64,000 bases of DNA from an uncultured bacterium (GTDB taxonomy: Bacteria > Planctomycetota > JAJSAM01 > JAJVHW01). Below are positions 1 to 60,316 of the stretch, piece after piece (position 1 is the stretch's first letter; every line of letters starts with the position of its first letter). Both the position numbers and the translations under genes were made by a program. The notes below the pieces were generated by a model. It had not been told where the DNA came from. It saw only the letters and a program-made list of their open reading frames with translations, and did not search any database. The stretch covers positions 145,139 through 209,138 of the forward strand of contig CALKVK010000012.1 in assembly GCA_937996235.1 (NCBI GenBank), in the 5' to 3' direction.

Positions 1-2144
1 GCGAGCGGCAGCACGGCGCGCACCGCGGCGGCGTGGAGGCCCCCGCGCAGGCGTGCCGCGCCGCCGGGCGCGCGCAGAGCGAAGCCGAGGTTCTCGGGCG
101 CCGCCCACGCGAGCGTGCCGTCCTCCGCGAACGCCGCGCTGCGCGGGATGTCCACGACCTCGCTCCGCTCGACGGTCTCGCCGAGGAGCGGGTCCCACAC
201 GGCGACGACGTGGTCTTCGCCCGCGCTCGCGAGGCGCGCGCCGTCGCGCGTCGCGGCGACGCAGACGACGGCGCCCTGGTGCGCGCGGATCTCGCCCGTG
301 ACGCGCAGCGCGGCACCGTCGCGGCGGACCGACAGCACGCGCCCGTCGGCCGTGCCGACGACGAACGCGTCGCCCGCCGCGGCCGCGACGCGCGGCTCGT
401 GGTCGAGATCGCACGCGGCGCTCTCGCGCAGGTCCGGCAGCGCGAGAAGCCGCACGCGTCCGCCCCGGCTCGCGACGCAGAGCGCAGCGTCGTGCGCGGC
501 GAGCGCAAGCGGCTCGTCGTCGAGACGGGCGGACGCGCGCACGGCGCCGTCGTCGAGCGCACGCAGCCACACCTCGCCGTCGGCGCCGATGCCGGCGACG
601 AGGTCGGTGCCGGGCACCGCCGCGAGGGCGCGGGCACCGCTGCCGTGCGGCGCGAGCACACGTTCGCAGGTGAACCAAGGCCGCAGCGTGCCCTCGCAGC
701 GCGCTGCGAGGGTGCGCAGCCGCGGCAGGTCGTCGGGCGGCACGCCGAGCGCGACGGCCTCGCGCAGCGCATCGCGTGTGCGCCCGTACCAGTCGGTGTC
801 GTGCGCCGCGAGCCGCGCGCCCGCCTCCTCGACGAGCGCACGCCGCAGATTCGCGCGGGCGATGTCGCGCTCCGCGACGACGCGCGCGAAGGCCAACGAC
901 GCGACGAGTGCGATCACCCCCGCGCTCGCGCCGAGCGTCGCCGCCAGCGCCGGCTCGCGTCGCACCCACAGCGCGGTGCGGCGCAGCGCGCCGGGCGGCC
1001 GCGCGCGCACCGGCTCGCGCGCGAGGAAGCGGCGCAGGTCGTCGGCGAACGCGCGCGCCGTCGCGTAGCGCTCGCCCGGCTCGTGCGCGAGCGCCTTCGC
1101 GCAGACGGTCGCGAGGTCCGCGGGGACCTCGGGTGCGAGGCGCGCGATCGGCGTCGGCCGCGCGTGCAGCACGGCGTGGACGACGCTCGCCGCCGAGCCG
1201 CCGACGTACGGCGGGCGCCCCGTCAGCAGCTCGTAGAGGACGGCGCCGAGACCGTAGACATCGGTGCGCGCGTCCACGGCGGCCGCGTCGCCGCGCGCCT
1301 GCTCGGGCGCCATGTACGCCGGTGTGCCGAGCACGTCGCCCGCGCGCGTGAGCGCCGGCTCGCCGCGCGCGAGGTGCGCGAGGCCGAAGTCCGCGAGCAC
1401 CGGGCGACCGCCCGCCGCGAGCAGCACGTTCGCGGGCTTCACGTCGCGGTGCACGATGCCGTATGCGTGCGCGTACTCGAGCGCGTCGGCGAGCCGGGCC
1501 ACGAGCTCCGCGGACGCGTCGGGGGGGAGGCGGCGCGCCGTGATCGCGCGCGCGAGGCTCTCGCCCTCGATGAAGTCCGAGACGATGAACGGCCGCCCGC
1601 CGCACGTGCCGACCTCGTGCACGCTGACGATGCCGGGATGGCGGAGCTGCGCCGTGCTGCGCGCCTCGCGCACGAGCCGCGCGGCGAGCAGCGGGTCGTC
1701 GAGCAGATCCTCGCGCGGCAGCTTCACCGCGACGTCGCGCGCGAGCTGAGGGTCGAACGCACGCCAGACCTCGGCGGACGCGCCGCGTCCGACGCGCTCG
1801 CGCAGCTCGTAGCGCCCGACGTGCGACCCTGCGGCGAGCGGCGGGCGGGCGACGAACCGCGCGGCGAGCGCGGCGTGCTCCTTGAGCACGCGCGCCCGCG
1901 CGGCCGTGTCGAGCTCCGGGTGCGGGTCGCAGAGCGCGGCGGCGTCGGGCTCCGGTGCGGCGGCGTCCCACGCCTTCCAGCGCAGCTCGAGCTCGATGAG
2001 CAGCAGTTCCTCCAGGGTCGCCGCGCGGAGCGGCGAGTCCCGCGGGGGCAGGAACGCGTCGAGCGGACGCGCGCCACCGGCCAGGCGGTGCGCCTCGAAG
2101 CGGCGGCGCGCGTCCTCGTCGATGGGCACGCGCGCGTCCGCCAT
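1..2144 (-). CDS. Hanks-type Ser/Thr protein kinase with C-terminal WD40/beta-propeller-like repeats. Partial: the 3' end lies beyond the window start.
   Basis: Reverse-strand translation from ATG at 2144 (RBS-like GGCGAGGA upstream) reads MADARVPIDEDARRRFEAH. The kinase domain follows, with VGRYEL..VAVK, HRDVKPANVLL, DFGLA and APE subdomain motifs, then W/D-rich repeats. It is absent from the ORF track because there is no in-window stop. Confidence 0.85.
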   Translation of the reverse strand, partial: MADARVPIDEDARRRFEAHRLAGGARPLDAFLPPRDSPLRAATLEELLLIELELRWKAWDAAAPEPDAAALCDPHPELDTAARARVLKEHAALAARFVARPPLAAGSHVGRYELRERVGRGASAEVWRAFDPQLARDVAVKLPREDLLDDPLLAARLVREARSTAQLRHPGIVSVHEVGTCGGRPFIVSDFIEGESLARAITARRLPPDASAELVARLADALEYAHAYGIVHRDVKPANVLLAAGGRPVLADFGLAHLARGEPALTRAGDVLGTPAYMAPEQARGDAAAVDARTDVYGLGAVLYELLTGRPPYVGGSAASVVHAVLHARPTPIARLAPEVPADLATVCAKALAHEPGERYATARAFADDLRRFLAREPVRARPPGALRRTALWVRREPALAATLGASAGVIALVASLAFARVVAERDIARANLRRALVEEAGARLAAHDTDWYGRTRDALREAVALGVPPDDLPRLRTLAARCEGTLRPWFTCERVLAPHGSGARALAAVPGTDLVAGIGADGEVWLRALDDGAVRASARLDDEPLALAAHDAALCVASRGGRVRLLALPDLRESAACDLDHEPRVAAAAGDAFVVGTADGRVLSVRRDGAALRVTGEIRAHQGAVVCVAATRDGARLASAGEDHVVAVWDPLLGETVERSEVVDIPRSAAFAEDGTLAWAAPENLGFALRAPGGAARLRGGLHAAAVRAVLPL

Positions 2145-2238
2145 CGACGCATCCTCGCCGCCCCCCGACAGCGACGCGACCCCCAACCGGGACGCCGACG
2201 GCGACGCGCCCAACACCGACGCGCCCAACGCGCCCAAC

Positions 2239-2474
2239 GGGGACGCTGGCAGCTAAGTCGGGTTCCAGCCTCGACAACGTCCGCGCCGTCCGCGCCGTCC
2301 GCGGCGTCGGCGGCGCCCGCGGCGCCCGCGCCGCGCGCGCCGCGCGCGACCGCGTCCGACGTGGCGCCCGCCGACCTCGGTGGCAGAGCCGAGGCTGCAA
2401 CCCGACTTAGCTGCCAGCGTCCCCAAGAGGGCGTCCCGAGGAGGCTGGAACTCGACTTGGCTGCCGGCGTCCCC
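2239..2474. repeat. Composite inverted-repeat element. One direct copy (2239-2273) plus two tandem inverted copies (2388-2424, 2441-2474) of a ~36-bp unit, GGGGACGCTGGCAGCTAAGTCGGGTTCCAGCCTCG.
   Basis: Copy A and the reverse complement of copy B differ at 1 of 36 positions. Copy C is degenerate. The same family recurs at 6140-6336. Confidence 0.8.
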
Positions 2475-2486
2475 AAGACTGGGCGG

Positions 2487-3059
2487 GTGGACGACTGGGA
2501 GGCGCTGATCGCCGGGGTCCGGGCGGGCGAGGCCGACGCGCTCGACGCGTTCTTCCGCCGCTTCGGACCGGCGCTCGAGAGGCTCGCGGCGCGCGCGATC
2601 GAGCCGGGCATGCGCCGCCGCTTCGGACCCGAGTCCATCGCGCAGTCGGTCTGCCGCACCTTCCTGCAGCGCGCACGCGACCGGGCGTACGACCTGCCCG
2701 ACGGGGACGCCCTCTGGCGCCTGCTCTGCGCCATCGCGCTGACCAAGGTGCGCGAGCGCGCCCGCCACCACCTGCGCCAGCGCCGCGCCATGCAGCGCGA
2801 GATCCACGGCGACGCCGCCGACGACGCGCTCGCCCGCGTCTCCTCGAGCGCTCCGGGTCCGGAGGACGACGCCGCCTTCCGCGAGCAGTTCCAGACGGCG
2901 CTCGACACGCTCGACGACGAGGAGCGCAGCATCCTCGAGCTGCGTCTCGCCGCGCGCACGCAGGCCGAGATCGCCGAGGCGCTGCACATCAGCGAGCGCA
3001 CGGTGCGGCGCATCCTCGGGCGCGTCGAGGAGCGGCTGACGCAGCTCCTCGCGACCTGA
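2487..3059 (+). CDS. ECF (sigma-70 family) RNA polymerase sigma factor.
   Basis: Only the C-terminal ~190 aa of track ORF 33..3059 is protein-like. It shows region 2 (DAFFRRFGPALERLAARA, LQRAR) and region 4 (DDEERSILELRLAARTQAEIAEALHISERTVRRIL) signatures. GTG at 2487 is the proposed start; TTG at 2457 is the alternative. The upstream part of that ORF is antisense to the kinase gene. Confidence 0.8.
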   Translation: MDDWEALIAGVRAGEADALDAFFRRFGPALERLAARAIEPGMRRRFGPESIAQSVCRTFLQRARDRAYDLPDGDALWRLLCAIALTKVRERARHHLRQRRAMQREIHGDAADDALARVSSSAPGPEDDAAFREQFQTALDTLDDEERSILELRLAARTQAEIAEALHISERTVRRILGRVEERLTQLLAT

Positions 3060-3178
3060 TCTCGGGTCGCATTCCGGTCGCGTTCCGGCCGACGCGCGGC
3101 GACGACGTGTCCGGTCCGTGCGCCCGACGGCAATCCCCCGTCGGAGGGTCGCCCCAGGGGCGCCCCCCGGGAGACCCC

Positions 3179-6118
3179 ATGCGCACGCCCCAGCTCGGAG
3201 ACATCAGCCACATCGCACGGCCGACACGCCACGCCTGGCGGGCGCCGGCCCTCGCCCTCGCCGCCACGCTGCTGGTGTTCGCGCCCGCTCCCGACGCCGC
3301 GGGCGGCGGACGCCTGCGGATCTCGTCGGGCCCCACGGTGCTCACCGAGGACCCGACCGCGGGCAAGCCCGTGGACTTCCGCGCGAGCGCGGTCTTCCCC
3401 GGCGAGGAGTGGATCGGCTTCCAGTGGGACTTCGGCGACGGCGTGACCGGCGGCGGCATCACGTACCAGTCGTCCGTCACGTCGGAGGTCTCGCACGTCT
3501 TCACGACGCCGGGCACGCACCGCGTCCTCTGCACCGCCTACCACGGCTTCAAGAGCGGCGTCTTCGGCGAGGGACCGTTCAAGTACCGCATGTCGCGGAC
3601 GGTGAGCGTGAAGGTCGCGCCGTCGCTGCCTCTCACGATCGGCGTGCTGACGGTGGACGGCGAGAACATCGCCGCGCGCGACGGCAGCGGGAAGCGCTAC
3701 CGCGTCTCGGGCAACGTGCGCATCAACGGCGGGCTGACGCTCTCGAACGACATCGACGTCGACTTCGAGAAGGTGACGGTCACGATCGCCGGCGCTCTGG
3801 GCGTCCCCGGCGCGGGCAGCTACGCCGACGGGCTCGCGTTCGCGCAGAACATCACGCTCGACGCCGCGACCGGTGGCTTCGCGAGCGTGGACCTGCCGCG
3901 CGTGAGCGCGTCGTTCGACGTGCACGGTCTCGCCGCGAAGCTCGAGAACGTGCGGATCGTGGGCGCGGGGATCGAGTTCGACTTCGAGGTGCGCATCCCG
4001 CGCATCTCGCAGGACCCCGCCGCACCCACGGAGCCGCCGGCGCCTGGCGCGCCGCTCGACCTCTCGCACGTCTACCCGAAGGCGCCGTCGCCGAAGCAGC
4101 TCGCCGCGCTGTCGTTCAAGCAGTTCCGCGTCGACGCGGTCGCGCCCTACCTGCACCCGCTCGGCGAGACGAAGGCGACGATCTCGAACGTGCCGCTCGG
4201 CTTCGCCGGGACGAAGTGGGGCATCGAGTCGCTCGAGGCGGGCATCGACCCGTCGCAGGAGCGCTTCTTCGGCTCGTTCCTGCTGAAGCTGCCGACCGAC
4301 CGCGGCGTCGGCGCGACGTTCGAGATCCGCGAGGGGCAGCTCGAGAAGGTCGGCGCGACGCTGCAGGGCAAGCTGCCGTTCTGGACGTTCACGGGCGCAC
4401 TCGACGCCATCTACGTCAACACGCTCTCGGGCAACGTCGTGAACCTCGCGCAGCTCGAGGGCCAGCCGCCGCGCACGCCGATGGTCGTCTGCGGCGCGTT
4501 CGATCCGGGCACGGGCAACGTGTCCGAGGACGGCATCGTGATCGAGTGGGGCCCGTCCACGAACCTCGTCGGGCAGAACGTGCTCACGCCGCTGCGGCTG
4601 CGCGGCGCGTGCACGTTCGATCCGTTCTGGAACGTCGCGGCCGCCGGACAGCTCTCCGTGTTCGAGGACGTGTTCGGCGAGCGCATGCGGCTCGTCGACG
4701 CGCAGGGCTCGTTCCACCCGGCGCCGGACGGCACCGAGGGCGGCACCTGGATGCTGCGCGGCGACCTGGTGTTCGACCCGCTCTTCGCGCTGAGCGCGGA
4801 TCTCACGACGACGTACGCGCCGGGCGAGTTCCGCGCGACGGCCTACGGCAACGGCACGACGCTCCTGCCGTCCGACCACTGGATCGCGGCCGTCGTGCCG
4901 CAGCTCGAGGCGAGCGTCGAGTGGACGTGGCGCTCGGGCCCGTTCCCGCGCAACCGCCTCTACGCGCGGGGGCACGTGGACGTGCCCGGCACGTACCCCG
5001 TGCTGGCTCAGGTGCTGAACGGCCGCGGTGTCGGCTGGTCGTACGACTTCGAGACCGGCGAGACGTCGTGGCAGGTCACCGACGTCGTCACCGACGTCTC
5101 CCCCGGCAAGGCCGTGGCGCGCACGGGCACCGTCGCGGGCGGCGCGGGCGCGCAGGGGCTCGTGGTGACGCTGCGCCACGCGAGCGGCTCGGGCGCCTTC
5201 GACCTGCGCCTGCCCGACGGCACCGTGCTCACGCCCGCGTCCGCGGACGGTCAGGACGTCGACTTCGTGGACGGTCCCGCGGTCGCGTTCTACGCGCTGC
5301 GCAGCGCTCCGGACGGCACGTACACCGCGCAGTTCGACGACGCCGCGCTCGGCTCGTACGACGTCAGCTTCTTCATCCCCGCCGCGCTGCCGGAACTCGA
5401 CGTGACGACGCCCGCCACGGCGACGACGCTCGCGCGCTACGACACCGCGGACGTCGCGTTCAGCGTCTCCGGCGTCGCCGCCGACGCGCCCGTGCGCGTG
5501 CTCCTCGACGACGACGGCGTGCCGGGCGGCGGGTTCGTCGTCGCGACGGGCGGCGCCGCGGACGGCTCGCTCGCGATCGACCTCGCGCAGGTCCCGGCGG
5601 GCACCTACGACGTCGTCGTCGAGGCGCTCGGCGAGGACGGCGCGCCGGTGCGCGGCACGGCTCCGGGGCACGTGGTCGTCGAGGAGCACGTCGCCGTCGC
5701 CGTCACGAGGGGCTCGCTCGTGGACGGTCCGAAGGCCGGGAAGGACAAGGTCTCCGTCGCGGGCACGCTGCGCTTCGCAGGCTCCGCGCCGGCGCAGCTC
5801 TTCGACCCGCAGACCGAGACGCTGCACGTCGTGCTCGGCGGCGACGCCGCGCCCCTCGCCATCGACGTGCCGGCCGGCGACCTCGGCTGGAAGGCGAACG
5901 CGAAGGGCGTGCTGAAGTGGCGGAGTCCGAAGGGCGCGACGCCCGTCGTCGCGCTGCTCCTCGACCCCGTGAAGCGCCGCTTCAGCGTGAAGGCGACGAA
6001 GGCCGAGTTCACGACGCCGGCGGTCAACCCCGTGCGCTTCGAGCTCGTCTTCGGCTCGGACCGCGCGTCGGACACGGCGGAGTGGACCGAGAAGGCGCCG
6101 GGCCGCCTCGTGCGCTGA
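3179..6118 (+). CDS. Large secreted PKD-domain protein (~979 aa).
   Basis: Internal Met at 3179 gives a signal peptide (MRTPQLGD...LALAATLLVFAPAPDAAGG). A PKD motif follows (WDFGDGVTGGG...HVFTTPGTHRV). Composition is non-biased, unlike the overlapping Arg-rich ORF 3118..6387. Confidence 0.8.
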   Translation: MRTPQLGDISHIARPTRHAWRAPALALAATLLVFAPAPDAAGGGRLRISSGPTVLTEDPTAGKPVDFRASAVFPGEEWIGFQWDFGDGVTGGGITYQSSVTSEVSHVFTTPGTHRVLCTAYHGFKSGVFGEGPFKYRMSRTVSVKVAPSLPLTIGVLTVDGENIAARDGSGKRYRVSGNVRINGGLTLSNDIDVDFEKVTVTIAGALGVPGAGSYADGLAFAQNITLDAATGGFASVDLPRVSASFDVHGLAAKLENVRIVGAGIEFDFEVRIPRISQDPAAPTEPPAPGAPLDLSHVYPKAPSPKQLAALSFKQFRVDAVAPYLHPLGETKATISNVPLGFAGTKWGIESLEAGIDPSQERFFGSFLLKLPTDRGVGATFEIREGQLEKVGATLQGKLPFWTFTGALDAIYVNTLSGNVVNLAQLEGQPPRTPMVVCGAFDPGTGNVSEDGIVIEWGPSTNLVGQNVLTPLRLRGACTFDPFWNVAAAGQLSVFEDVFGERMRLVDAQGSFHPAPDGTEGGTWMLRGDLVFDPLFALSADLTTTYAPGEFRATAYGNGTTLLPSDHWIAAVVPQLEASVEWTWRSGPFPRNRLYARGHVDVPGTYPVLAQVLNGRGVGWSYDFETGETSWQVTDVVTDVSPGKAVARTGTVAGGAGAQGLVVTLRHASGSGAFDLRLPDGTVLTPASADGQDVDFVDGPAVAFYALRSAPDGTYTAQFDDAALGSYDVSFFIPAALPELDVTTPATATTLARYDTADVAFSVSGVAADAPVRVLLDDDGVPGGGFVVATGGAADGSLAIDLAQVPAGTYDVVVEALGEDGAPVRGTAPGHVVVEEHVAVAVTRGSLVDGPKAGKDKVSVAGTLRFAGSAPAQLFDPQTETLHVVLGGDAAPLAIDVPAGDLGWKANAKGVLKWRSPKGATPVVALLLDPVKRRFSVKATKAEFTTPAVNPVRFELVFGSDRASDTAEWTEKAPGRLVR

Positions 6119-6139
6119 CCAAGACGGAGACGCCGAGAC

Positions 6140-6336
6140 GGGGACGCTGGCAGCTAATTCGGGTTCCAGCCTCGAGATCGACACGACAGCCAGGTCGGCG
6201 CTCTGCGCGGAGGGCAACCACCCTGGTCGAGCCGAGGCTGGAACGCCACGTGGCCGCCGGCGTCCCCTGCGGACTGCGTCGCGCGACGGCCGTGCTGAAG
6301 CCGAGGCTGGAACCCGACTTAGCTGCCAGCGTCCCC
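6140..6336. repeat. Second locus of the same ~36-bp inverted-repeat element family. Direct copy 6140-6174; degenerate inverted copy 6231-6267; near-perfect inverted copy 6300-6336.
   Basis: Copy D (GGGGACGCTGGCAGCTAATTCGGGTTCCAGCCTCG) differs from copy A at 1 position. The reverse complement of copy F is identical to A apart from its ends. The locus starts 22 bp after the PKD gene stop. Confidence 0.8.
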
Positions 6337-6420
6337 CGGGTCCGCGTCCCCCGGGTCCCCGGGGTCTCCCGGGTTCGGATTCGCTGACGGCCGGCGCCGT
6401 ACGTACGGATCCTGCACACC

Positions 6421-7137
6421 ATGCTGTTCGACCCCGTCTACTGGATCGTGATCGGCATCGGGATGGCGCTCAGCCTTGCGGCGAGCGCCCTCGTGAAGGG
6501 CCGCTTCGCGAAGTACTCGCAGATCGGCACGCGCTCGCGCATGACCGGCGCGGACATCGCGCGCGCGATCCTGCGCGACAACGGCATCCACGACGTCACC
6601 GTGGAGCGCGTGCCGGGGAACCTGACCGACCACTACGACCCGCGCGGGAAGATGCTGCGGCTCTCGGAGCCGGTCTACGCCAGCAACAGCATGGCCGCGT
6701 TCGGCATCGCGGCGCACGAGGTCGGCCACGCGATCCAGCACGCGCAGGGCTACGCGCTCCTCGGCTTCCGCTCGGCGTGGGTACCCGTCGCGAACGTGGG
6801 CGGCGGCATCTCGATGTTCGTGCTCTTCGCCGCCGCGTTCATGGGCGGCGCACAGACGGTCATGGGCGAGCGCCTCGCGTGGGTCGGCATCGCGCTCTTC
6901 GCGACGACCACGCTGTTCACGCTCGTCACGCTGCCGGTGGAGTTCGACGCGAGCCGCCGCGCCCTAGCAGCGCTGCGCGGCCGCTACGTCACCGACGACG
7001 AGTACGTCGGCGCGCGCAAGGTGCTGACGGCGGCGGCGCTGACCTACGTCGCCGCGTTCATCACGTCGCTCCTGACGCTGCTCTACTGGGCGTACCGCCT
7101 CGGCCTGCTCGGCGGCGGCCGCCGCCGCGACGACTGA
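6421..7137 (+). CDS. Membrane zinc metallopeptidase (Zn_peptidase_2 / YpuF-like neutral zinc metallopeptidase family).
   Basis: HEVGH zinc-binding motif, several TM helices and non-biased composition. Confidence 0.85.
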   Translation: MLFDPVYWIVIGIGMALSLAASALVKGRFAKYSQIGTRSRMTGADIARAILRDNGIHDVTVERVPGNLTDHYDPRGKMLRLSEPVYASNSMAAFGIAAHEVGHAIQHAQGYALLGFRSAWVPVANVGGGISMFVLFAAAFMGGAQTVMGERLAWVGIALFATTTLFTLVTLPVEFDASRRALAALRGRYVTDDEYVGARKVLTAAALTYVAAFITSLLTLLYWAYRLGLLGGGRRRDD

Positions 7138-9803: not shown

Positions 9804-10056
9804 CGACGCAGCGAGCGCGGTCGGAGCGCCGTGGACGCGACGACCTGGGCGTCGCACGGACGCATCCCCGACGGCACGGCGGCGACGGCGTTGCACTCGA
9901 TCTCGGATCGCTTCGAGGGCTCCGTCGCGACATGGCGGCGCGCCGGCGCGGAACGGTCGCCGCGCAGCGGCGTCGCGGACTGCGCGCGCCGCGGACTCCG
10001 ACCGGCCCGGCCGACAGCGTACACTCCCCCACGGCGCCGGCGCGCCGCACGTCGCC

Positions 10057-10380
10057 ATGCCGCATCCCGGCCTTCCCGTCTGCTCCGCCTGCGGAGCCGT
10101 GCTCCGCCTCACGGCGACACGGCACGCGCTCGGGTTCCCGCGCCTCGCGTGCGGTGGCTGCGGGACGAGCGTGCTCGGCCCGCTGCCCACGGCGTTCCGC
10201 GTGACGTACATCGTGCTCGCGGTGCTCGTGGCTGTCGATGCCGTGCGCCTGCTGGTCACCGACGCGTTCGGTCCGTTCGACATCGCGCGTCTCGTGCTCT
10301 TCGACGGCGTCTTCGTCGGCGTGCTCGTCGCCGATGCGCGCCTGCGACGCGCGTCGCCGCCCGGCGACGCGCACGACTGA
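10057..10380 (+). CDS. Small hypothetical protein with an N-terminal CxxC...CxxC zinc-ribbon and a C-terminal hydrophobic segment.
   Basis: The ORF has two CxxC pairs and a TM-like stretch (VTYIVLAVLVAVDAVRLLV). Supported only by ORF plausibility. Confidence 0.35.
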   Translation: MPHPGLPVCSACGAVLRLTATRHALGFPRLACGGCGTSVLGPLPTAFRVTYIVLAVLVAVDAVRLLVTDAFGPFDIARLVLFDGVFVGVLVADARLRRASPPGDAHD

Positions 10381-10392: not shown

Positions 10393-11235
10393 TCAGGCGT
10401 CCGACGGCGCGGCGGCGGGCAGATCGACGCGGAAGACGGTGCCGAGCGGCGAGGTCCGCACGGCGATCGTGCCGCCGAGATCGAGCACGGCCTGCCGCAC
10501 GATGAAGAGTCCGAGACCGTTGCCGCCGCCGCGCGTGTGCACGCCGGAGAACGGCCGGAAGAGCCGCGCGCGCATCGTCTCGGGAATGCCCGGTCCGTTG
10601 TCCGCGACGGTGAGGCGGCAGATGCCGGCGCGCGGGCACGAGGCGCTGAGCGTCACCTCCGCGCCGGGCCGCTCGCCGCACGCCTTCACGGCGTTGGTCG
10701 CGAGGTTCACGACGGCCTGCACCGCGAGGCGGCACTCGCCGCGCACGCCGCCGTCCTCGGCCACGTCCGCGCGGAACGCGACGCTGTGCGCGTGCGCGAG
10801 CGGCCGGACGATCCGCGCGCCGTGGGCGAGCACCTCGGAGAGCAGGAAGCGCTGGTCGTCGAGCGCCGACTGCCGTCGCGCGAACGCGAGGAAGGCGTCG
10901 GTCGTCTCGGCGACGTCGCGGCACAGGTCGCGGATGCCGTCGAGCGCGCTGCGCATCTCCTCGGCGTCGCCGGAGTGCAGCGCGAGCTCCGCCGTCGAGA
11001 GGATGAGCTGCGCCTGGTTGCGGACGTCGTGCGCGAGACTCGACGTGATCAGCCCCGCCTGCGCGACGCGCTGCTGGTGCCCGAGCATCTGCAGCAGCGT
11101 CTCCCGTTCCGCCTCCCACTTCGCACGCTCGGCGTCGAGCGTCGGCGCACGGTCGACGGGCGGCGCCGACGCGGCGGGAGCCCGCCGGGAGGGGTTCCCG
11201 GCGGGACTGCGCGCGCGCGGAGCGTTGCTGTGCAT
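10393..11235 (-). CDS. Cytoplasmic sensor histidine kinase (HisKA + HATPase_c) with no adjacent response regulator.
   Basis: H-box SLAHDVRNQ, N-box NLATNAVKA, G1 DNGPGIP, G2 GLGL. The start lies 15 bp after the stop of the upstream small gene. Confidence 0.85.
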   Translation of the reverse strand: MHSNAPRARSPAGNPSRRAPAASAPPVDRAPTLDAERAKWEAERETLLQMLGHQQRVAQAGLITSSLAHDVRNQAQLILSTAELALHSGDAEEMRSALDGIRDLCRDVAETTDAFLAFARRQSALDDQRFLLSEVLAHGARIVRPLAHAHSVAFRADVAEDGGVRGECRLAVQAVVNLATNAVKACGERPGAEVTLSASCPRAGICRLTVADNGPGIPETMRARLFRPFSGVHTRGGGNGLGLFIVRQAVLDLGGTIAVRTSPLGTVFRVDLPAAAPSDA

Positions 11236-11250
11236 CGTGCGCCGAGACCC

Positions 11251-11628
11251 TCAGGTGACGTCGGAAGCGCTGTCGCAGCCAGGCAGATCGAGGTCGAGCG
11301 AAAGCCCGCCGGCCGTCGCCACGCGGAGCACGCGCGCCGCGCGCGGCTCGGCCGTGGACAGCGTGAACTGCCCGCAGTCGTCGGTCGTGACGGCCGGTCC
11401 CGCATCGAGCGCGACCGTCGCGCCGACCACGGGCCTCTCGTCGGCCGTTCGGATCACCTGACCGTAGTGGTAGCCCCAGGAATCGCCCCCGGTGTGGACC
11501 ACCAGGTCGACCGTCAGGCCGCCGCCGCAGAACACGAGCGACCTCCCGTCGGGGAGCGCCGCGCGCGCGCCGACGACCGCCCACGAGCGGGCCGAGTCGT
11601 AGACGAGACGCGCGGCGACGGCGCTCAT
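11251..11628 (-). CDS. Small hypothetical protein (125 aa); C-terminal domain paralogous to the adjacent gene.
   Basis: Only the C-terminal 125 aa of track ORF 11251..12132 are protein-like. ATG at 11628 overlaps the upstream stop (ATGA). Shares a DDCGQFTL / FGEFTF beta-rich C-terminal motif with the 11625..12164 product. Confidence 0.6.
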   Translation of the reverse strand: MSAVAARLVYDSARSWAVVGARAALPDGRSLVFCGGGLTVDLVVHTGGDSWGYHYGQVIRTADERPVVGATVALDAGPAVTTDDCGQFTLSTAEPRAARVLRVATAGGLSLDLDLPGCDSASDVT

Positions 11629-12164
11629 GCGTCCCAGCCTTCCCAGACCATCACGCACGGAGCGTCGAAGGCGGCGCCGAGGCGGAGTGCGTACACGCCG
11701 TCGCGGGCCGAGGCGAACGTGAACTCGCCGAACTCGTCGGTCGTCGTGTCGTCGGACGCCGGGACGGGAAGCCCCACCAGCCGGAGCGGCAGACTCGCGA
11801 CGGGCTCGTGGATGCGCCCGGCGTGCGTGACCTGACCGACGTAGCGCAGCTCGCGCTGCACCTCGCAGTCGCGCACGAGCACGTCGAGCGTGAACGGGCC
11901 GGCCGCGCACACGAGCTGGTAGTCGGCGGCCGCTCCGACGCGGGTTCCCGCACGGGCGCCCACGCGGGTCGGCCGCAGCCAGCGGCTCATGAGCGGACTG
12001 CGGCGCACGCGCGCCGTGTCGCCCGAGAGCAGGTCGAACGTGGTCGCGCTGCACGCGCTGCAGCGCTCCACCTCGAGGTGCTGCCGCACGCGGCGCACGA
12101 GCTCGCGCTCCGGCGCCGAGCCGAGCGCGCACTCCGACAGCTCCTCGCGGGTCGGGTGGGCCAT
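11625..12164 (-). CDS. Hypothetical protein (179 aa) with an N-terminal putative zinc-finger (H-x5-C-x2-C, anti-sigma zf-HC2-like) and a C-terminal beta-rich domain paralogous to the downstream gene.
   Basis: Protein-like region MAHPTREELSECALGS...HLEVERCSACS...TTDEFGEFTF. ATG at 12164. Its stop overlaps the downstream start (ATGA). Confidence 0.6.
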   Translation of the reverse strand: MAHPTREELSECALGSAPERELVRRVRQHLEVERCSACSATTFDLLSGDTARVRRSPLMSRWLRPTRVGARAGTRVGAAADYQLVCAAGPFTLDVLVRDCEVQRELRYVGQVTHAGRIHEPVASLPLRLVGLPVPASDDTTTDEFGEFTFASARDGVYALRLGAAFDAPCVMVWEGWDA

Positions 12165-12172
12165 CGCGATGT

Positions 12173-13264
12173 TCACCTGCCCACCGCCTGGCCCACGTCG
12201 AGCCGTCCCGAGTAGCGCAGACGACGGCCCTTCGCGTCGTAGACGGGGTACGCGGTGTCGGCGAGCCGCGCGACGACCTCGTTCACGCAGAGCTCCGGCT
12301 CGACCTGACGCAGGAGCGCGGCAGCTCCGGCGACGAACGGGGCGGCGAACGAGGTGCCGCTCCAGTACGCGTTGGCGTCGTCGGTGGGCGTGCCGACCGG
12401 CCCGTAGAGGTTGACGCCGGGCGCGAAGATCATGCGCGCCTGGCCCTCGAGCGGCCGCATGTCCTGGTACGAGGAGAACGGCGCGATCGCGTCGTTCTCG
12501 TCCACCGCGCCGACGACCAGAGCGGGCACGCCGAGCGCGAGATCGGTCACCGGGCCCCTGCCGTCGTTGCCGGCCGAGAGCACGACGACGATGCCGCTCG
12601 ACGTCGCCTCGCGCATGAGGTCCATGAGCTGCGTGTCCTTCGCCTTCGACGCCTCGAGCGACATGTTGATCACGTCCACGCGGCGGTCGATCGCGTAGCG
12701 CAGCCCGGCCGCGAGCGACGCGTTGAACCCGCGGCCCTCGTCGTCGCGCACGCGGATCGGCAGGATCTGCGCCTCGGGCGCGACCTTCAGGATCATGCCC
12801 GCGACGAACGTGCCGTGGCCGAGGCCCTCGTCCACGACTCCGTCGCCGTCGTCGTCGAGACCGTTGCCGTGGTCGTTGACGTCGCTGTCGCGGTCCACCG
12901 CGTCGAGACCCCCGGGTGCGATGTGTGCGCACACCGCGGGGTGATCGACGTTGAAGCCGCCGTCGAGCACGGCGACGAGCGCCCCGCTCCCGACCGACAG
13001 CGACCACGCGGCCGGCGCGCGCACCTGCTGCTCGGGCGCGTACGCCATCGCCATCGCAAGATCCGACGAGACGAGCTTGACGTTCGTCGGGTTGCACTCG
13101 CCGGAGAGCAGCTCGTAGCGTCGCGACTCCGACCTCGTCCGGCCGTCGCAGTCGCGCGACTGCTCCGACCTGTCCGCCGCCGCGGGGACCGCGGCGAGCG
13201 TGACGGCCAGCGCCGCGATCGCGGCGGCGCGCCCCATGCGGCGCGGCTGGTGGGTGTCCTTCAT
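12173..13264 (-). CDS. Secreted subtilisin-like serine protease (peptidase S8).
   Basis: Signal peptide MKDTHQPRRMGRAAAIAALAVTLAAVPAAA. Catalytic D (VAVLDGG), H (GHGTFVAGM) and S (GTSFAAPFVAGAAALL). Start at 13264 overlaps the CHAT gene stop (ATGA). Confidence 0.85.
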   Translation of the reverse strand: MKDTHQPRRMGRAAAIAALAVTLAAVPAAADRSEQSRDCDGRTRSESRRYELLSGECNPTNVKLVSSDLAMAMAYAPEQQVRAPAAWSLSVGSGALVAVLDGGFNVDHPAVCAHIAPGGLDAVDRDSDVNDHGNGLDDDGDGVVDEGLGHGTFVAGMILKVAPEAQILPIRVRDDEGRGFNASLAAGLRYAIDRRVDVINMSLEASKAKDTQLMDLMREATSSGIVVVLSAGNDGRGPVTDLALGVPALVVGAVDENDAIAPFSSYQDMRPLEGQARMIFAPGVNLYGPVGTPTDDANAYWSGTSFAAPFVAGAAALLRQVEPELCVNEVVARLADTAYPVYDAKGRRLRYSGRLDVGQAVGR

Positions 13265-16209
13265 CGTGCGTGCTCCTTCCGACCGCGCCGCCCGGTCGCG
13301 GCGCCGGCCCTGTCGTGACGACAGCCCTGCCGGCGCGCGGCCCCGCGCGATCCCTGTGATTCGGTCCCGGGGCGTCCCGTCAGGAAGAAGGGCGCCCAGT
13401 AGTACGGATGGGGATGCCGCTCGCGGACCGCGACCATCGTGGCGCGATGCGCTGCGGCGGCGTCGCCGAGTCGTTCGAACTCGGCGTAGAAACGGGTCAT
13501 GAACGACGTCGTGACGGCGTCGTCGACACGCCACTGGCTGGCGAGGATCGCGGGCGCGCCGGCGTAGAGGAAGCCGCGCGTGAGTCCCAGGATCTCGTCC
13601 CCGCCGGCGACGTCGGCGATGCCGCTCTCGCACGTCGAGAGCACGATCAGCTCGCTGCGCACGTCGAGCTCGTAGAGGTCGTAGAGGTTCGCCCAGCGGT
13701 CGGCGAGCCGCACCGACGAGAGCATCGGCTGCGCGTGGCGGAACATGCCGTGCGTCGCGAGGTGCACGATGCGCGCGCGGCCGACCTCCTGCGCGAGGCG
13801 ATGGAACGTGGCCGCCGGACCGACGTGCACGCGGTCCGTGCCGAGCCGTGCGCCGAGCGCGACGGCCTCGTCGGCGATCGCGGGCGCGACCTCGTCGGGC
13901 AGCGCCAGGATGGCGGGCGCACCGGTGGCGCGGGCGCGCGGCGCGCCGCAGTGGCGGTACACCGCGGCGCTCGGCGCGTACGTGATCTCGAAGCGGTCGC
14001 AGAGCCAGCCGTCACCCCACGGCAGGGCGTGGAACGGCACATGGTGCAGCGCACCGTGCGGGACGATCACGAGCCGCTCGCTCGTGAGGTGCGGCGCGAT
14101 GTCGCCGAGGGCCAGCGCGGCCAGCTTCCCGAGCGTGGCGCGCGTCGCGCGCAGCACGAGCTCGGGCGCCGGCATCTCCGGCCGCTCGTGCTTCGCGAGG
14201 TGGAAGTGGAACTGCTCGAGCAGGTCGAGCACCTCGCGCGCCCGCACGGCGCGCCGCGTCACGTGCAGCGCGTCGCGCGTGATCGCGAACGTGAAGAGGC
14301 TCGTGCCCGTGAGGAAGAACTCGACCAGGCACGTGCGCCCGTCGAGTTCGGCACGCGTCTCGGCGAGCGTCGGCGCCGCCGCGGACTCGAGCGCGTACGT
14401 GCCGCCGCCCGACATGCGGCGCTGCCGCAGCACGTCGGCGAGCTCCACCTCGAGCGAGCGCGCCTCGCGCAGCGCGCGCTGCGTCGCACGCGAGCTGCGC
14501 GCGGCGCCGCCTTCGCCCTGGCGCATGATGCGCCCGTAGATCGCGGTCAGCCGCTCGCGCAGGTGCTGCGCGCGCGCCGCGAGTGTGCCCTCTCCCTGCC
14601 CTGCGCCGCCGCTCTCGCGGCCCTGCAGCAGGTCCGTGAGCGCACGCGACTTCGCGCGCTCCACGAACTCGAACGCGTCGTGCTCGCGCCCTGCGTCCGC
14701 GAGCAGCTCGACGATCTCCTCGTACAGCGCGCGGCGCCCCGCGAGGAACGCCATCATGTACTCGTCGACGGGCACGCCGCCGCGGTAGCGCTCGAGCTCG
14801 TCGATCGCCCGGCGGTACGCGTCGATGGCCGACGAGACGTCGCCCAGCTCGCGCAGCGCCCGACCGAGCAGCCGCTCCGCCTCGATTCGCACGCACGGCG
14901 CGTGGACGCGCCGGCAGTGGGCGAGCACCTCCTCCGCACGCCCGCGCGCCGCGGACGCGCGCCCCTCGTCGAGCTCCAACCAACCCCGGAGCAGAGCGAC
15001 CGACGCGAGCGAGAGCGGGTTCTGCCGGCCCCGCGGGTGCGCGCGCTCCGCGCGGGCCGCCATGCGCCGCGCGCCGGCGCGGTCGCCGGCGGCGCGGAGC
15101 AGCTCCGCACGCCCTGCGAGACACTGATAGGCACGCTCGCCGTGGCCGGCCTTCGCGAAGCGGCGCGCGGCACGTTCCCAGAGCGCGTGCGCCTTCTTCG
15201 CGTCGCCGTCCTGCGCCGCGGCGCGCGCCGCGATCTGGCACGCCTGCGTCGCCTCCTTCGCGAGGCCGAGGGCGCGGAAGCGTCGCTCGGCACGCGACGC
15301 CGCGAGCGCGGCCTCGGCGGGCATGTTGAGCTGGACGTGGATCTCGGCGCGGTCGAGGTCCACGTGCGCGAGATGGCGCTCGTCGCCAAGTGCCTCGAGC
15401 GCGTGCTCGACGTCCGCGTAGCGCCGCAACGCCGAGGCGAAGCGTCCGCGGAGGCCCTCGGCGTACGCGGCGTTGTAGTCGATCTGCGCGACCGTGTGCG
15501 TGCAGCCCTCGCGTGCGAAGAGGTCCCGCGCGATCACGAACTGCCGCTCGGCGCCGCGGAAGCGGTTGCACGCCTCGAGCGCGTTCGCGCGGTTGGCGGC
15601 GATGGCGCCGCGCACGCGCGGCAGCGGCGAGCCGTTCAGCAGGCGGTCGGCGTCGGCGAGGTGGCGCAGCGCGGCGCGCGGGTCGTCCTCGCGGTACGCG
15701 ATGTCGCCGAGCACGAGCGACGTCCAGAGCAGGCCCTTGCGGTCGCCGCGCTCCGCGTGGCTGCGGCGCGCGCGCTCGACGGCGTCCCGCGCCGGGCCGT
15801 AGCGCTCGAGATGCAGGAGCGCCTGCGCCCGCAGCGTCTCGAGTTCGGCCGCGTGCGCGTGCTCGTCGGCATGCAGGTGCACGGCGCCGCGGCGAACGGC
15901 GCGGAGCGCGGCGCGGTGGTCGCCGCCGCTCGACTCGGCCTGCGCCCACGCGCTGCAGGCGCGCAGCATGGCCTCTCGGTCGCCTGCGGACTCGGCGACG
16001 CGGAGCGCGAGGCGTGCCGCTTCGGAGGCGTCGCGCGGGTCCACGCGCATCCGCGTGTGGGCGGCGGCGAGGAAGGCTTCGGCGAGCGCGGATCCGGCGG
16101 GCGTCGCCCGCCGCGCCAGACGGCGCGAGCGCGCGGCCAGACCACGCGCGGCGAGCACGTGATCGCAGAACTCCGCGGGCGCGGCGGCCCTGTCGGATTC
16201 GTTCGGCAA
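13261..16209 (-). CDS. TPR-repeat + CHAT domain protein (caspase-like protease; 982 aa).
   Basis: N-terminal tetratricopeptide-like helical repeats. C-terminal CHAT signature (RIVHLATHG ... LIVLSTCESG His/Cys dyad). Confidence 0.85.
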   Translation of the reverse strand: MPNESDRAAAPAEFCDHVLAARGLAARSRRLARRATPAGSALAEAFLAAAHTRMRVDPRDASEAARLALRVAESAGDREAMLRACSAWAQAESSGGDHRAALRAVRRGAVHLHADEHAHAAELETLRAQALLHLERYGPARDAVERARRSHAERGDRKGLLWTSLVLGDIAYREDDPRAALRHLADADRLLNGSPLPRVRGAIAANRANALEACNRFRGAERQFVIARDLFAREGCTHTVAQIDYNAAYAEGLRGRFASALRRYADVEHALEALGDERHLAHVDLDRAEIHVQLNMPAEAALAASRAERRFRALGLAKEATQACQIAARAAAQDGDAKKAHALWERAARRFAKAGHGERAYQCLAGRAELLRAAGDRAGARRMAARAERAHPRGRQNPLSLASVALLRGWLELDEGRASAARGRAEEVLAHCRRVHAPCVRIEAERLLGRALRELGDVSSAIDAYRRAIDELERYRGGVPVDEYMMAFLAGRRALYEEIVELLADAGREHDAFEFVERAKSRALTDLLQGRESGGAGQGEGTLAARAQHLRERLTAIYGRIMRQGEGGAARSSRATQRALREARSLEVELADVLRQRRMSGGGTYALESAAAPTLAETRAELDGRTCLVEFFLTGTSLFTFAITRDALHVTRRAVRAREVLDLLEQFHFHLAKHERPEMPAPELVLRATRATLGKLAALALGDIAPHLTSERLVIVPHGALHHVPFHALPWGDGWLCDRFEITYAPSAAVYRHCGAPRARATGAPAILALPDEVAPAIADEAVALGARLGTDRVHVGPAATFHRLAQEVGRARIVHLATHGMFRHAQPMLSSVRLADRWANLYDLYELDVRSELIVLSTCESGIADVAGGDEILGLTRGFLYAGAPAILASQWRVDDAVTTSFMTRFYAEFERLGDAAAAHRATMVAVRERHPHPYYWAPFFLTGRPGTESQGSRGAARRQGCRHDRAGAATGRRGRKEHAR

Positions 16210-21386: not shown

Positions 21387-21973
21387 GCGCTCTCCCGCGG
21401 CGCGCGCAGGCGCGAGGACACCGCGCGCACCCAGGTGTCGGCGGCGAGTGCGTCGCCGAGGCCCTCCGCGACGGCGACGAACTCGTAGAGGCGATGGCGC
21501 CGGCGGCGGAACGACGCCGCGACCGTCAGAGCGCAGCACGCCAGGAGACCGTGACCGACTCCGAGCAGCACGACGTCGACGGCGAAGGATGGCGAGACCA
21601 CCGTGGACGCCCCCGAGCCGAGGAGTGCGAACGCCGTCCGCAGCACCGCCCAGAAGAGCAGCAACTCCACGAGGATGCGCGCACGCGACGCCGCCTCGTG
21701 CCGCCGCGACTCCGCCAGCGTCACGAGCGTCGGGTGGACGCACGCGACCGCGCCGACGACGAGCCACGCGAACGTGCGCGGTCCCGGAGTCGCCGCGTCG
21801 AGCGACGCGCCGCACGCGGCCGCGGCGAGTGCGACGCACGCGGTCGTCGCGAGGGGGACGGCCCAACCGCGCGACGTCCCCGGACCGGGCGACGGCTCGC
21901 GCGGGGCGAGCAGTTCCTCCCAGAGCGCGAGGGGCGCGCTGACCGGCGTCGACGGGCGCGAGGTATCGCTCAC
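21383..21973 (-). CDS. Small multipass membrane protein (~196 aa).
   Basis: Only the C-terminal ~196 aa of track ORF 21383..26242 are protein-like, with TM helices (WAVPLATTACVALAAAACG, AWLVVGAVACV, LVELLLFWAVLRTAFALLG, VVLLGVGHGLLACCALTVAA). GTG at 21973 overlaps the upstream stop (GTGA). Confidence 0.6.
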   Translation of the reverse strand: MSDTSRPSTPVSAPLALWEELLAPREPSPGPGTSRGWAVPLATTACVALAAAACGASLDAATPGPRTFAWLVVGAVACVHPTLVTLAESRRHEAASRARILVELLLFWAVLRTAFALLGSGASTVVSPSFAVDVVLLGVGHGLLACCALTVAASFRRRRHRLYEFVAVAEGLGDALAADTWVRAVSSRLRAPRESA

Positions 21974-24900
21974 GCCGGGAGCGCCTCGCCGTGCTCCATG
22001 TCGTCCTCCAGATCGTCCTCCATGTCGTGCTCCGCCTGCTGCGCCTCGGCGGGCGAGCCGGCCTCGACCGCGGGCTCCGCCGTCTCGGCCCAGTCCAGCT
22101 CGACGTCCACGTCGAGCGCGTCCGAGCCCGTCGTCTCCGCTTCGGTCGCCCCGGCCGCCGCCGCGGCCTCCTGCGCGCGACGGCGCCGCGACATGACGAA
22201 CCCGATGGCGCCGCCGAGCACCGCGAGACCGATCCAGACGAGGAACGCCCAGCGCGCCACGTCCGCCATCCACGCCGTCGCGGCGGCGAGGGCGCGCAGT
22301 CCGAGCCACGTGCCCGCGCACGCCACGGCGACCACGACCAGCCGGCGCGGCGCGACGTCCACGGGCCGCAGCGCGCCGCGGCGTTCGTTGCGCACGTGGA
22401 CGAGGAGCGCCGCCCCCGCCGCCGCGAGGAACGCGCCGCCGACGGCCGTGCGCAGCACGCCGGGACTCGCCGCGGGCGCGAGCACGTCGAGGCGCCACGC
22501 GAGCAGCGCGAGCCAGCCGAGCGGCACGAGGTGCGCGGCCGCCCACACCGGCGGCGCGTACCGCGGTGCGTCGCGCGCCGCGGCGGCGCGCTCGGATGCG
22601 GGACGTTCGTCCGCGAGCAGCGCCGAGACGACACGGTCCACCGGCAGCGCCGACAGCGCGCGCTCGAGTCGCCCGGGTGCGACGGCGTCGGCGTGACGTC
22701 GCGCGCACGCCGCGGTCCGCGCGAGCACGACGACGAGCACGAGCACCTCGACGACGAGGAGCGCACGCCAGTCGTCCCACGTCGCCGCGCGCGCCGCGTC
22801 GAGGACGGCGCCCGACCCGCCGTGGTGGCCGAGCAGCGCGCCGACGTGCAGGAGCAGCAGCTCGGACGCGAAGAGCCACCAGCGTCCGCGCAGGTCGGAC
22901 CGCGCCGCGGAAGCGCCGCACCCGAGCGCGTACACCGCGACGACCGGCATGACGACGTCTCCGACGCCGAGCTGGGCGAGGCCCCACCCGAGCGCCCACG
23001 CGACACCGAACGTGCACGGCGGCGCAAGCCACCACGTGCGCTCGGGACGCCGCTGCGCATCCGCCGACGCGGCACGCGGAGCGCGCCGCAGCAGCGCGGC
23101 GACGGAGCGTCGCACGCGCACGCCGAGGCCGTCGTCGGCGAACCCCAGGAACACCGTGTCGCGCAGCGCGTCCGCGTCCGGGTCGTCGGCCGTGGCCGAG
23201 CGGCGCCGCGCCTCGGCGAGGCGGCGCAGCCACGGACGCTCCTCGACCGCCACCTCGAGAGCGTCCGGGTCGGACGCGGACGCCGGGACGAGCCACGCGA
23301 GGAAGCTCGCACGGATCTCGCGCGCGAGCGGCTCGGGGAGCGCTTCGGTCAGGTGGCGCCGCAGCCAGTCCGGGAAGACGCCCGCGCGCATCCACGGCAG
23401 CCGCACCAGCCGCGTGAGGTCGGCGGACGTCCACGCGTCGGAGCCGTCGGTGTGCGCGAAGACCAGGTCGCCGAGCCGCTGGGTGAGGCCGTGGTGCACC
23501 TGCGGGTACACGGCGCACGCGCAGAGCCATGCGTACGTCTGCGGTCCGAGATACGCGCGCAGTTCCGCCAGCACGCGCGCGACCTCGTGCTCGGGCGGCG
23601 ACCCCGACGCGAGCCAGCGCTCCGCGCCGGCGCGCAGCGTGGGCGGGAACGCGGCGCGCCCGCCCGCGCCGCGGTGCGCGTCGAACGCGGCGAGGTCGCC
23701 GGGCGCCGCCGCGCGCGCCGGGGTCTCGAGGGCCGCGACCGCGAGACCGTCGGCGAGGACGGCGCGCTCCTCGTGCGACCACTCGTCGCGCGCGGCCGGG
23801 ACCACGGCAGAGCGTTGCGCCCACGCGTCGAGCCCCGCGAGCCACGGTGCCGCGCCGCCGCGCGGATCCCGGAACGTGGACGCCTCCGCGAACACCAGCA
23901 GCCGCCGGTCGCGCAGGCGTCCGACGAGGTCGTCGAGCCGCTCGGCGCGCTCCCCGCCGCGGCGCCGCACGACGCGCGGATCGCGCGAGAACTCGAAGCG
24001 CTCGACGTGCACGCCCTCCGACTCCAGACGGTCGAGCACGGCTGCGACGTGGTCGGCCTGCGCGTCGGCGGCGCTGCGCCGATCGACGAGCGCGACGTAC
24101 TCCGGCGTCTGCGGACGCGAGCGCAGGACGGGCGTCGGCAGGCCGCCCGCGGCGACGGTGCGCTCCACGCTGCGTTCGACGTCGAGGTCGCCGGTCACGA
24201 CGTCGGCGTGTGTGCGCAGGCGCGCGATGTCGGCGCGCAGCGTCGGGGCCACCGCGGAGCCGCGCGTGTGCTGCGGCACGGTCAGGAAGGCCGGCCGCGC
24301 GTCGTCCGCGACGACGCCGCGCCGCACGTAGGCGCGCGCGATTCCGCGGCGCACGACGACGCCGACCAGGAACACGCCCGCCAGCGCGGCCACGAACGGC
24401 AGCGGCGACGGCGCGGGCGCGCCCACGCGCCACACGCGCAGCGTGCCGTCGAGCGACGACGTCGCGATGAACGCACCGTCGGGGCTGAAACGCGCGTCGG
24501 TCACGGCTCCCGTGTGACCGAGCAGCACGCGCTCGAGGGCGCCGGTCCGGGCGTCCCAGACGCGGGCCGTCATGTCGGCGCTCGCGGTGACGATGCGCGT
24601 GCCGTCGGGACTCCAGTCGCCTCCCGTCACCCAGCCGTCGTGTCCGCGCAGCGCCACCACGGCGCCGTTCGTCACGTCGTAGATCCGCGCGACGTCGTCG
24701 GTGCGCGTGACCAACAGGGAGACGGAGTCCGGCGAGAACGCGATGGTCGCCAGGTCGCCGCGCGGTCCGGACCACGCCCGCGCCTGCGACCCGGTACCTG
24801 CGTCGAAGGTCCGAAGCGTGCCGTCCTCCGCGACTGCGGCGATCCAGTCGCCCGACGGACTCCACGCCACGGCGTGAGCAGGCGATCCACCAGTCGGCAG

Positions 24901-27956: not shown

Positions 27957-27969
27957 GGGCAGTCCTCCG

Positions 27970-29220: not shown

Positions 29221-29263
29221 GGGGGGCGAACCTCCTGCGCGCGCCGAGGGCGGCGCGCTCCCT

Positions 29264-30166: not shown

Positions 30167-30197
30167 GGGGTCCTCCGGGATGGCGTGGCGGCGCGCG

Positions 30198-45482: not shown

Positions 45483-45576
45483 CCGCTACGAACGGTGTCC
45501 GACACCGTTCGTCGGCTTGACCGCTACGAACCGTGTCAGACACGGTTCGTAGCGGACACCGTTCGTAGCGGTCAGG
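45483..45576. repeat. REP-like palindromic element cluster (family GCTACGAACGGTGTC-N-GACACCGTTCGTAGC). 2-3 copies, between convergent genes.
   Basis: The perfect palindrome GAACGGTGTC C GACACCGTTC and its variant GAACCGTGTC A GACACGGTTC were read directly. Family members recur at five other loci. Confidence 0.8.
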
Positions 45577-60296: not shown

Positions 60297-60316
60297 GCTG
60301 AGATCGGAGGAGCCCC

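Follow-up and report, generated by a model that had tools for sequence, protein, structure and literature searches.

The stretch of DNA analyzed here, referred to throughout as the window, comprises 64,000 nucleotides (nt) of contig CALKVK010000012.1 from an uncultured bacterium of the Planctomycetota and has a G+C content of 74.5%. Close to its left end, a gene for an extracytoplasmic function (ECF) sigma factor and a gene for a large secreted protein with a PKD domain lie between two arrays of a short repeat, a 35-bp unit that reads GGGGACGCTGGCAGCTAAGTCGGGTTCCAGCCTCG on the + strand and occurs in six copies, three in array 1 (2239-2474) and three in array 2 (6140-6336). The genes of the locus, together with a conserved motif between the two bracketed genes, are listed below; L004, L029 and L030 denote loci of relatives used for comparison.

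3 to 2144, - strand: Ser/Thr protein kinase with WD40 repeats, running off the window start and divergent from the sigma gene, with an L004 orthologue of 58% identity
2487 to 3059, + strand: ECF sigma factor (PF07638, Sigma70_ECF) of the kinase-linked type, with a GTG start; no anti-sigma gene was seen
3108 to 3134, + strand: two-block motif TGTCCGGTC-N12-GGCAAT, between the sigma gene and the large gene and upstream of the latter
3179 to 6118, + strand: large secreted PKD-domain protein of 979 aa, 58% identical to the product of the gene downstream of sigma in L004
6421 to 7137, + strand: Zn-metallopeptidase (PF04298, YugP-like), with proximal upstream sequence common to L029 and L030

Kinase-linked ECF sigma factors work without anti-sigma factors and are activated by phosphorylation (PMC13147305, PMC8999054, PMC7826278), and autoregulation is common among ECF sigma factors (PMC7826278). 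No second sigma gene was found in the window. The window encodes another Ser/Thr kinase at 36642-40259 (+), in fusion with an AAA_16 STAND ATPase and TPR repeats and with no adjoining sigma gene. The named homologues of the Zn-peptidase come from Myxococcales or Deltaproteobacteria metagenome-assembled genomes.

The initial annotation of this DNA had described six copies of the repeat, four with no or one mismatch and two degenerate, placed in each array as one direct and two inverted copies. This description held, with the unit measured as 35 bp and the orientation order +, -, - in both arrays. Given on the strands of GGGGACGCTGGCAGCTAAGTCGGGTTCCAGCCTCG, the copies without mismatches are 2239-2273 (+) and 6302-6336 (-), those with one mismatch are 2390-2424 (-) and 6140-6174 (+), and the degenerate ones are 2440-2474 (-, four mismatches) and 6233-6267 (-, six mismatches). 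One degenerate pattern matches all six units and nothing else in the window, and it found no match in 100 shuffles of the sequence; no further copy was found in the window even when 13 mismatches were allowed. The reported placement of the arrays beside the sigma start and the PKD stop was also confirmed, as array 1 ends 12 nt before the sigma GTG (2487) and array 2 starts 21 nt past the stop of the PKD gene (6118). The same annotation had taken the two bracketing elements to be near-identical, which is true of the units and their orientation and of nothing else: only the 35-bp units are common to both arrays, the DNA between them is unrelated and not alignable, and whereas array 1 has its degenerate copy outside the inverted pair, array 2 has it inside. 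A segmental duplication as the origin of the arrays was rejected, since only the units are common to both. When the unit is read on the other strand, in the direction of the promoter-like layout discussed below, the copies are as follows.

2239 to 2273, - strand: U1, -35 GGAAC at 2266-2262 and -10 CGTC at 2245-2242, facing the Ser/Thr kinase gene (ATG 2144)
2274 to 2389, no strand: U1-U2 spacer, G+C-rich 9-nt tandem repeats without promoter-like sequence, unrelated to the interior of array 2
2390 to 2424, + strand: U2, -35 variant GCAAC at 2397-2401 and -10 CGTC at 2418-2421, facing the ECF sigma gene; inverted partner of U1, 116 nt apart
2440 to 2474, + strand: U3, degenerate with four mismatches (three in the spacer), -35 GGAAC at 2447-2451 and -10 CGTC at 2468-2471, its end 12 nt from the sigma GTG
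6140 to 6174, - strand: U4, -35 at 6167-6163 and -10 at 6146-6143, antisense into the 3' end of the PKD-protein gene; inverted partner of U6
6233 to 6267, + strand: U5, degenerate with six mismatches, all in the 16-nt spacer, -35 at 6240-6244 and -10 at 6261-6264, facing the Zn-peptidase gene
6302 to 6336, + strand: U6, exact unit, -35 at 6309-6313 and -10 at 6330-6333, facing the Zn-peptidase gene (ATG 6421)

U3 is probably a local tandem copy of U2, because AAGA follows both. G+C-rich short tandem repeats adjoin the units (2204-2238, 2266-2363 and 6329-6358), with CGCGCCCAAC three times before U1, the 9-nt repeats between U1 and U2 and GCGTCCCCCGGGTCC twice after U6. A second GCGTC is present 6-8 nt downstream of the unit in five of the six cases.

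On the promoter strand the unit reads GAGGCTGGAAC-N16-CGTCCCC (a pattern also written GAGGCTGNAAC-N16-CGTCCCC), or in full CGAGGCT-GGAAC-CCGACTTAGCTGCCAG-CGTC-CCC. This is the layout of a complete ECF-sigma promoter, with GGAAC as the -35 word, a 16-nt spacer and CGTC as the -10 word, extended to GAGGCTGGAAC at -35 and to GCGTCCCC at -10. The -35 word is GGAAC in five of the six copies and GCAAC in one, and exactly 16 nt separate it from CGTC in all six. GGAAC(TT) is the -35 element contacted by region 4 of sigma-E (PMC3397946), and ECF promoters are described as commonly having CGTC at -13 to -10 (PMC3397946). Outside the arrays there are five GGAAC-N16-CGTC sites in the 64 kb when both strands (128 kb) are counted, and the expected share of window 35-mers containing this pattern is ~8.6e-4. 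A lone site of this kind at 9950-9974 (+) is intergenic, has flanks unlike the unit and lies 83 nt upstream of a 107-aa open reading frame (10057-10380, no Pfam match); it may be either a further ECF-type promoter or a coincidence.

When the six copies are aligned together with their flanks, the block from GAGGCTG to GCGTCCCC is invariant, and its edges at GAGGCTG and CGTCCCC are sharp. Variation gathers in the 16-nt spacer, which holds seven of the nine variable columns (p = 0.03) and 10 of the 12 substitutions (p = 0.009), although these p-values are optimistic and weigh less in favor of a promoter than they appear to, as only two copies have diverged and the substitutions of U3 and U5 are partly shared and not independent. 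Such bipartite conservation, with boxes kept and spacer varying, is what a -35/-10 promoter predicts. A gene start lies 15-160 nt ahead of the unit in all copies except U4. Among the possibilities raised in the initial annotation, that of protein-binding sites is the one favored by the evidence, namely the complete ECF-type -35/-10 layout and the bipartite conservation. Two other identities for the unit were rejected on reading the sequence: a sigma-54 promoter, as TGGCAG-N5-TCGG lacks the -12 GC, and an integron attC core site, as there is no GTTRRRY.

After an entry that is 99% identical, the next relatives of the sigma factor show 67-73% identity. Four relatives' loci (L001, L003, L004 and L028) share the gene order of a kinase-WD40 gene divergent from sigma followed by a large gene, and in L004 both the kinase and the large protein are the 58% identical orthologues listed above. 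On the basis of this gene order and orthology, the kinase, sigma and PKD genes form an old, vertically inherited three-gene unit, with the sigma/PKD pair at its ancestral place. The initial annotation had proposed comparing the presence of the sigma/PKD module at this site and searching relatives for the unit; the module is present and syntenic in relatives that lack the repeat, and no copy of the unit was found in the fetched relatives' loci. Because the syntenic relatives lack the repeat, a mobile-cassette reading of the module is not supported, and the repeats are an addition around it.

The kinase-sigma intergenic region measures 342 nt in the window vs 28-114 nt in the relatives. Each strand of this region carries a single TAnnnT in six relatives (L001, L003, L004, L028, L005 and L007), 7-8 nt upstream of the kinase start and 7-12 nt upstream of the sigma start, which indicates compact back-to-back promoters of housekeeping type and leaderless or near-leaderless kinase and sigma mRNAs. 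In the 342-nt region of the window, neither strand has a TAnnnT box and no sigma-70-like site was found, so that the units are the only promoter-like sequence available there for the sigma gene. An AGGA ribosome-binding site at the kinase start of the window is consistent with a leadered mRNA. Because degenerate nAnnnT remnants sit 6 nt from both gene starts, array 1 appears to lie between the two ancestral -10 positions. At the other array, the closest relatives of the Zn-peptidase gene have different upstream neighbors and intergenic regions of 55-93 nt; as the window keeps the proximal upstream sequence of L029 and L030, array 2 would have been added upstream of it. Descent of the unit from the relatives' kinase-sigma promoter core, suggested by the resemblance of CGGGTTACCCTCG to CGGGTTCCAGCCTCG, was rejected, since an nhmmer profile of the relatives' intergenic regions matches no unit and gives its best hit (E = 2.5) at an unrelated site.

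No exact match to the motif was found in 185,579 GTDB representative genomes, 241 million JGI metagenome records or IMG/VR, and the arrays show no similarity beyond chance to 72,556 plasmid records and 50,697 phage records, including inverted repeats (IRs) of Tn3 type. These searches agree with the earlier remark that no described element has this sequence.

The reading with the best support, which we consider about evenly probable, is that the unit is an ECF-type promoter, multiplied locally and endowed with promoter activity. According to this explanation, the unit would have been copied locally in this lineage, inverted and in tandem, into both intergenic regions flanking the sigma/PKD operon, and RNA polymerase carrying an ECF sigma factor is inferred to bind each unit. 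U1 would drive the kinase gene leftwards from a predicted +1 at ~2232 with a leader of ~88 nt, while U2 and U3 would drive the sigma gene rightwards from predicted +1 positions at ~2431 and ~2481. U5 and U6 (predicted +1 at ~6274 and ~6343) would add input upstream of the native promoter region of the Zn-peptidase gene, and U4 (predicted +1 at ~6133) would give rise to antisense RNA running into the end of the PKD gene. In a sigma/PKD mRNA that reads through, U4 would pair with U6 over 35 bp and may stall transcription or stabilize the 3' end. The net effect would be to bring the kinase/sigma pair, which has housekeeping-type promoters in the relatives, under the control of an ECF sigma factor. 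A bolder version, which we regard as rather improbable, makes the unit a minimal, self-copying "portable ECF promoter" that, singly and in inverted pairs, spreads without duplicating its target and wires its neighbors into the regulon of one ECF sigma factor; here it would have taken the place of the housekeeping promoters of the kinase/sigma pair, with a feedback loop or a sigma cascade as the result.

Several observations weigh against a promoter function. The ends of an inverted pair face the neighboring genes whatever their function, which weakens the argument from orientation, and one copy, U4, is directed into the 3' end of the PKD gene. The spacer has the same sequence in four copies, a sign of recent copying and not of independent promoters. 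The nAnnnT remnants near the kinase and sigma starts (GAGGAT and AAGACT) could still serve as -10 boxes, and the Zn-peptidase gene retains its native proximal upstream sequence. The unit is absent from the L001, L003, L004 and L028 loci, and a relaxed ECF-type motif occurs near the sigma gene in none of 20 loci of the sigma family. By contrast, TGTCCGGTC-N12-GGCAAT stands in the same register upstream of the PKD-type gene in all five close loci (window 3108-3134; L001 10749-10775; L003 10588-10614; L004 5012-5038; L028 ~736-765), with the surrounding DNA diverged. This motif is a candidate target promoter of the adjacent sigma factor; it could instead be an operator, because it holds an inverted GTCCG...CGGAC.

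These observations also bear on which sigma factor would read the unit. The adjacent one is the obvious candidate, and positive feedback would follow. However, its DNA-binding regions are highly conserved, and taken together with the retention of TGTCCGGTC-N12-GGCAAT and the lack of an ECF-type motif across the family loci, this conservation suggests that the adjacent sigma factor probably reads something other than the repeat, more likely TGTCCGGTC-N12-GGCAAT. Another ECF sigma factor acting in a cascade seems at least as likely a reader of the unit as the adjacent one. No target-promoter motif for kinase-activated ECF groups was found in the literature consulted.

Among the rival explanations, a selfish or neutral short dispersed repeat is the main one, although we think it unlikely. 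It would resemble a MITE (miniature inverted-repeat transposable element), a bacterial interspersed mosaic element (BIME) or a hairpin-forming doublet (REPIN) of repetitive extragenic palindromic (REP) sequences, and would spread as inverted pairs, its ECF look being a coincidence or an incidental outward promoter as in Correia elements. The outer inverted pairs of the two arrays match a MITE in size and geometry, at 186 and 197 bp with GGGG...CCCC facing outward; four copies are nearly the same and the unit boundaries are sharp; the unit is lineage-specific, the corresponding sites in relatives being short and without it; and another, clearly REP-like family occupies six sites in the same genome. 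MITEs carrying promoters and forming RNase III substrates are known (PMC10969869), and pairs of the Tn3-derived inverted-repeat miniature elements (TIMEs) can bracket DNA segments (PMC4133298). Nevertheless, no consistent direct repeat was found at any array or unit boundary within 4 nt either way, and no 5-bp duplication flanks the units. The unrelated interiors imply that the thing copied is the 35-mer and not the array, and the unit forms no hairpin (z about -1, vs -6.9 for the REP-like family). Its decay is concentrated in the spacer and not even, and the exact ECF layout would arise by chance with a probability of ~1e-3. Genes for a transposase, RAYT, integrase, invertase or other recombinase are absent from the window, the plasmid and phage sequences with their Tn3-type IRs show no similarity, and no further copy is present in the 64 kb or in the public genome, metagenome and viral collections searched. 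The MITE-like mobile cassette suggested by the initial annotation is contradicted by the synteny of the kinase, sigma and PKD genes in repeat-free relatives, together with the unrelated interiors and the lack of a consistent duplication.

The inverted pairs invite two further explanations. The initial annotation had noted that each array can fold into a hairpin with a 35-bp stem, and this is correct: the arms of the outer pairs are 35 bp long with 34 of 35 positions paired, around loops of 116 nt and 127 nt. RNA folding, which that annotation had recommended, was carried out, and the array hairpins are far more stable than those of shuffled sequences (array 1 as DNA, -96 kcal/mol, z -8.9; the array 2 region 6119-6420 as RNA, -175 kcal/mol, z -5.8). 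If function resided in these hairpins, which we regard as improbable, array 2 would stop transcription past the PKD gene or stabilize the 3' end there, and array 1 would be a cruciform or insulator separating the divergent genes. The stability of the folds and the position of array 2 directly past the stop codon, in a gap without another terminator, fit such a role, and REP and MITE hairpins are known in such roles (PMC10969869). But long hairpins follow trivially from inverted copies, and folding of a single unit is not significant (z = -1.3 and -0.95). The hairpin has no U-tract after it, and no intrinsic terminator with a G+C-rich hairpin and a T run was found in 6000-6500 or 2100-3200. Divergent gene starts border array 1 on both sides, so that no transcript would need to be stopped there, and the degenerate U3 and U5 are without partners. 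The avoidance of the boxes by substitutions would be unexplained, since any compensated stem would serve. No Rfam covariance model matches within 2100-6500 at E values up to 1, and with no Rfam family and no significant fold of the single unit, the structured RNA considered in the initial annotation was not supported. A hairpin role could coexist with promoter activity. Finally, the units could be sites of a site-specific recombinase that inverts the array-internal segments, or the whole 3.7-kb sigma/PKD segment between U3 and U4, as a phase-variation switch. We judge this very improbable. The 116-nt and 127-nt segments do lie between 35-bp inverted repeats, the operon is flanked by oppositely oriented copies, and the unit can be written as a 12-7-12 dyad with arms complementary at nine of 12 positions. 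However, a dyad as good as this best internal one is found in 13% of random window 35-mers and is lost in the degenerate copies, and a lox/FRT/dif-like 12-7-12 core was rejected because the dyad is no better than chance. The window lacks a recombinase or invertase gene, the operon keeps the same orientation relative to the kinase gene in all relatives, and the interior of array 1 is a simple G+C-rich repeat that offers nothing to switch. The recombination sites of the initial annotation have no support, either from an enzyme gene in the 64 kb or from the dyad.

Elsewhere in the window, the other repeat family, CTACGAACGGTGTC-N-GACACCGTTCGTAG, is spread over six intergenic sites (45485-45553, 46858-46926, 49681-49705, 55698-55728, 57649-57718 and 60226-60300) with at least 10 copies in all, often as doublets 38-39 nt apart. 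Each of its units forms an almost perfect 14-bp hairpin ending in CTAC/GTAG (z = -6.9), and ~200 kb of relatives' loci contain no copy of the family. It has the appearance of a classic REP/BIME type and shows how the 35-bp unit differs from REP sequences here. A cluster of defense-like or STAND-type genes at 10393-16209 and 21970-35447 encodes a CHAT-TPR protein (982 aa), a subtilase, an HATPase_c protein, a 1672-aa WD40 protein, an AAA ATPase, a DUF4062 protein with an inactive STAND domain and a 1749-aa CHAT/DUF7379/TPR-S protein. At 58715-59572 (-), within the gene 57729-59816, six repeats of 144-147 nt stand in frame; they correspond to FG-GAP repeats of a 695-aa protein and are ordinary coding repetition. 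The segment 60851-64000 has a G+C content of 64-69% vs the 74.5% average and is possibly foreign DNA; it encodes a 462-aa hypothetical protein and, on the - strand, a 451-aa Schlafen/DUF2075-like P-loop helicase.

Should the units be active as promoters, a kinase-activated ECF sigma system would have moved from constitutive expression of the leaderless type to ECF-sigma control by way of a multiplied 35-bp unit, and the locus would offer a concrete, testable case of regulatory rewiring in a poorly studied and very G+C-rich lineage. This is probably a modest, lineage-specific case, and if the units are merely a selfish repeat the finding is ordinary. The comparison has in addition yielded a candidate target motif for the kinase-linked sigma family (TGTCCGGTC-N12-GGCAAT) and the compact divergent promoter architecture of that family.

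Among known systems, ECF promoters of the RpoE, SigW and CarQ type (-35 GGAAC, a spacer of ~16 nt, -10 CGTC) have the same words and spacing as the unit. They also share its bipartite conservation with a variable spacer, and the units, like such promoters, are intergenic and beside an ECF sigma gene; five of the six face a gene start, though the ends of inverted pairs would do so anyway. The unit differs from them in that it is not conserved at orthologous loci, has four copies with the same spacer, forms inverted pairs and has one antisense copy, and in that the adjoining sigma factor is of the kinase-activated type. REP, BIME and REPIN sequences resemble the units in forming extragenic clusters of alternating orientation and inverted doublets that fold into hairpins, whereas the REP unit is itself palindromic and often GTAG-ended, which the 35-bp unit is not. 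TIMEs and TIME-COMP elements are likewise short, with inverted repeats of ~35-38 bp, and two elements can bracket a gene module, but they carry 38-bp IRs of the Tn3 family, 5-bp duplications and a conserved length of 262 bp (PMC4133298), while the arrays have no similarity to plasmid-borne IRs, no duplication and bracketed genes that stand at their ancestral place. The Correia repeat-enclosed elements of Neisseria, which are promoter-bearing MITEs, resemble the arrays in being intergenic, shorter than 200 bp and bounded by inverted repeats with outward promoters at their ends (PMC10969869); they too form a long hairpin when co-transcribed, lie near gene starts and can rewire expression (PMC10969869). 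They differ in having promoters of sigma-70 type, TA target duplications, conserved interiors and more than 100 copies per genome, compared with an ECF promoter type, no duplication, unrelated interiors and two known sites for the arrays. The closest known analogues of the unit are thus ordinary ECF promoters and promoter-bearing MITEs such as the Correia elements.

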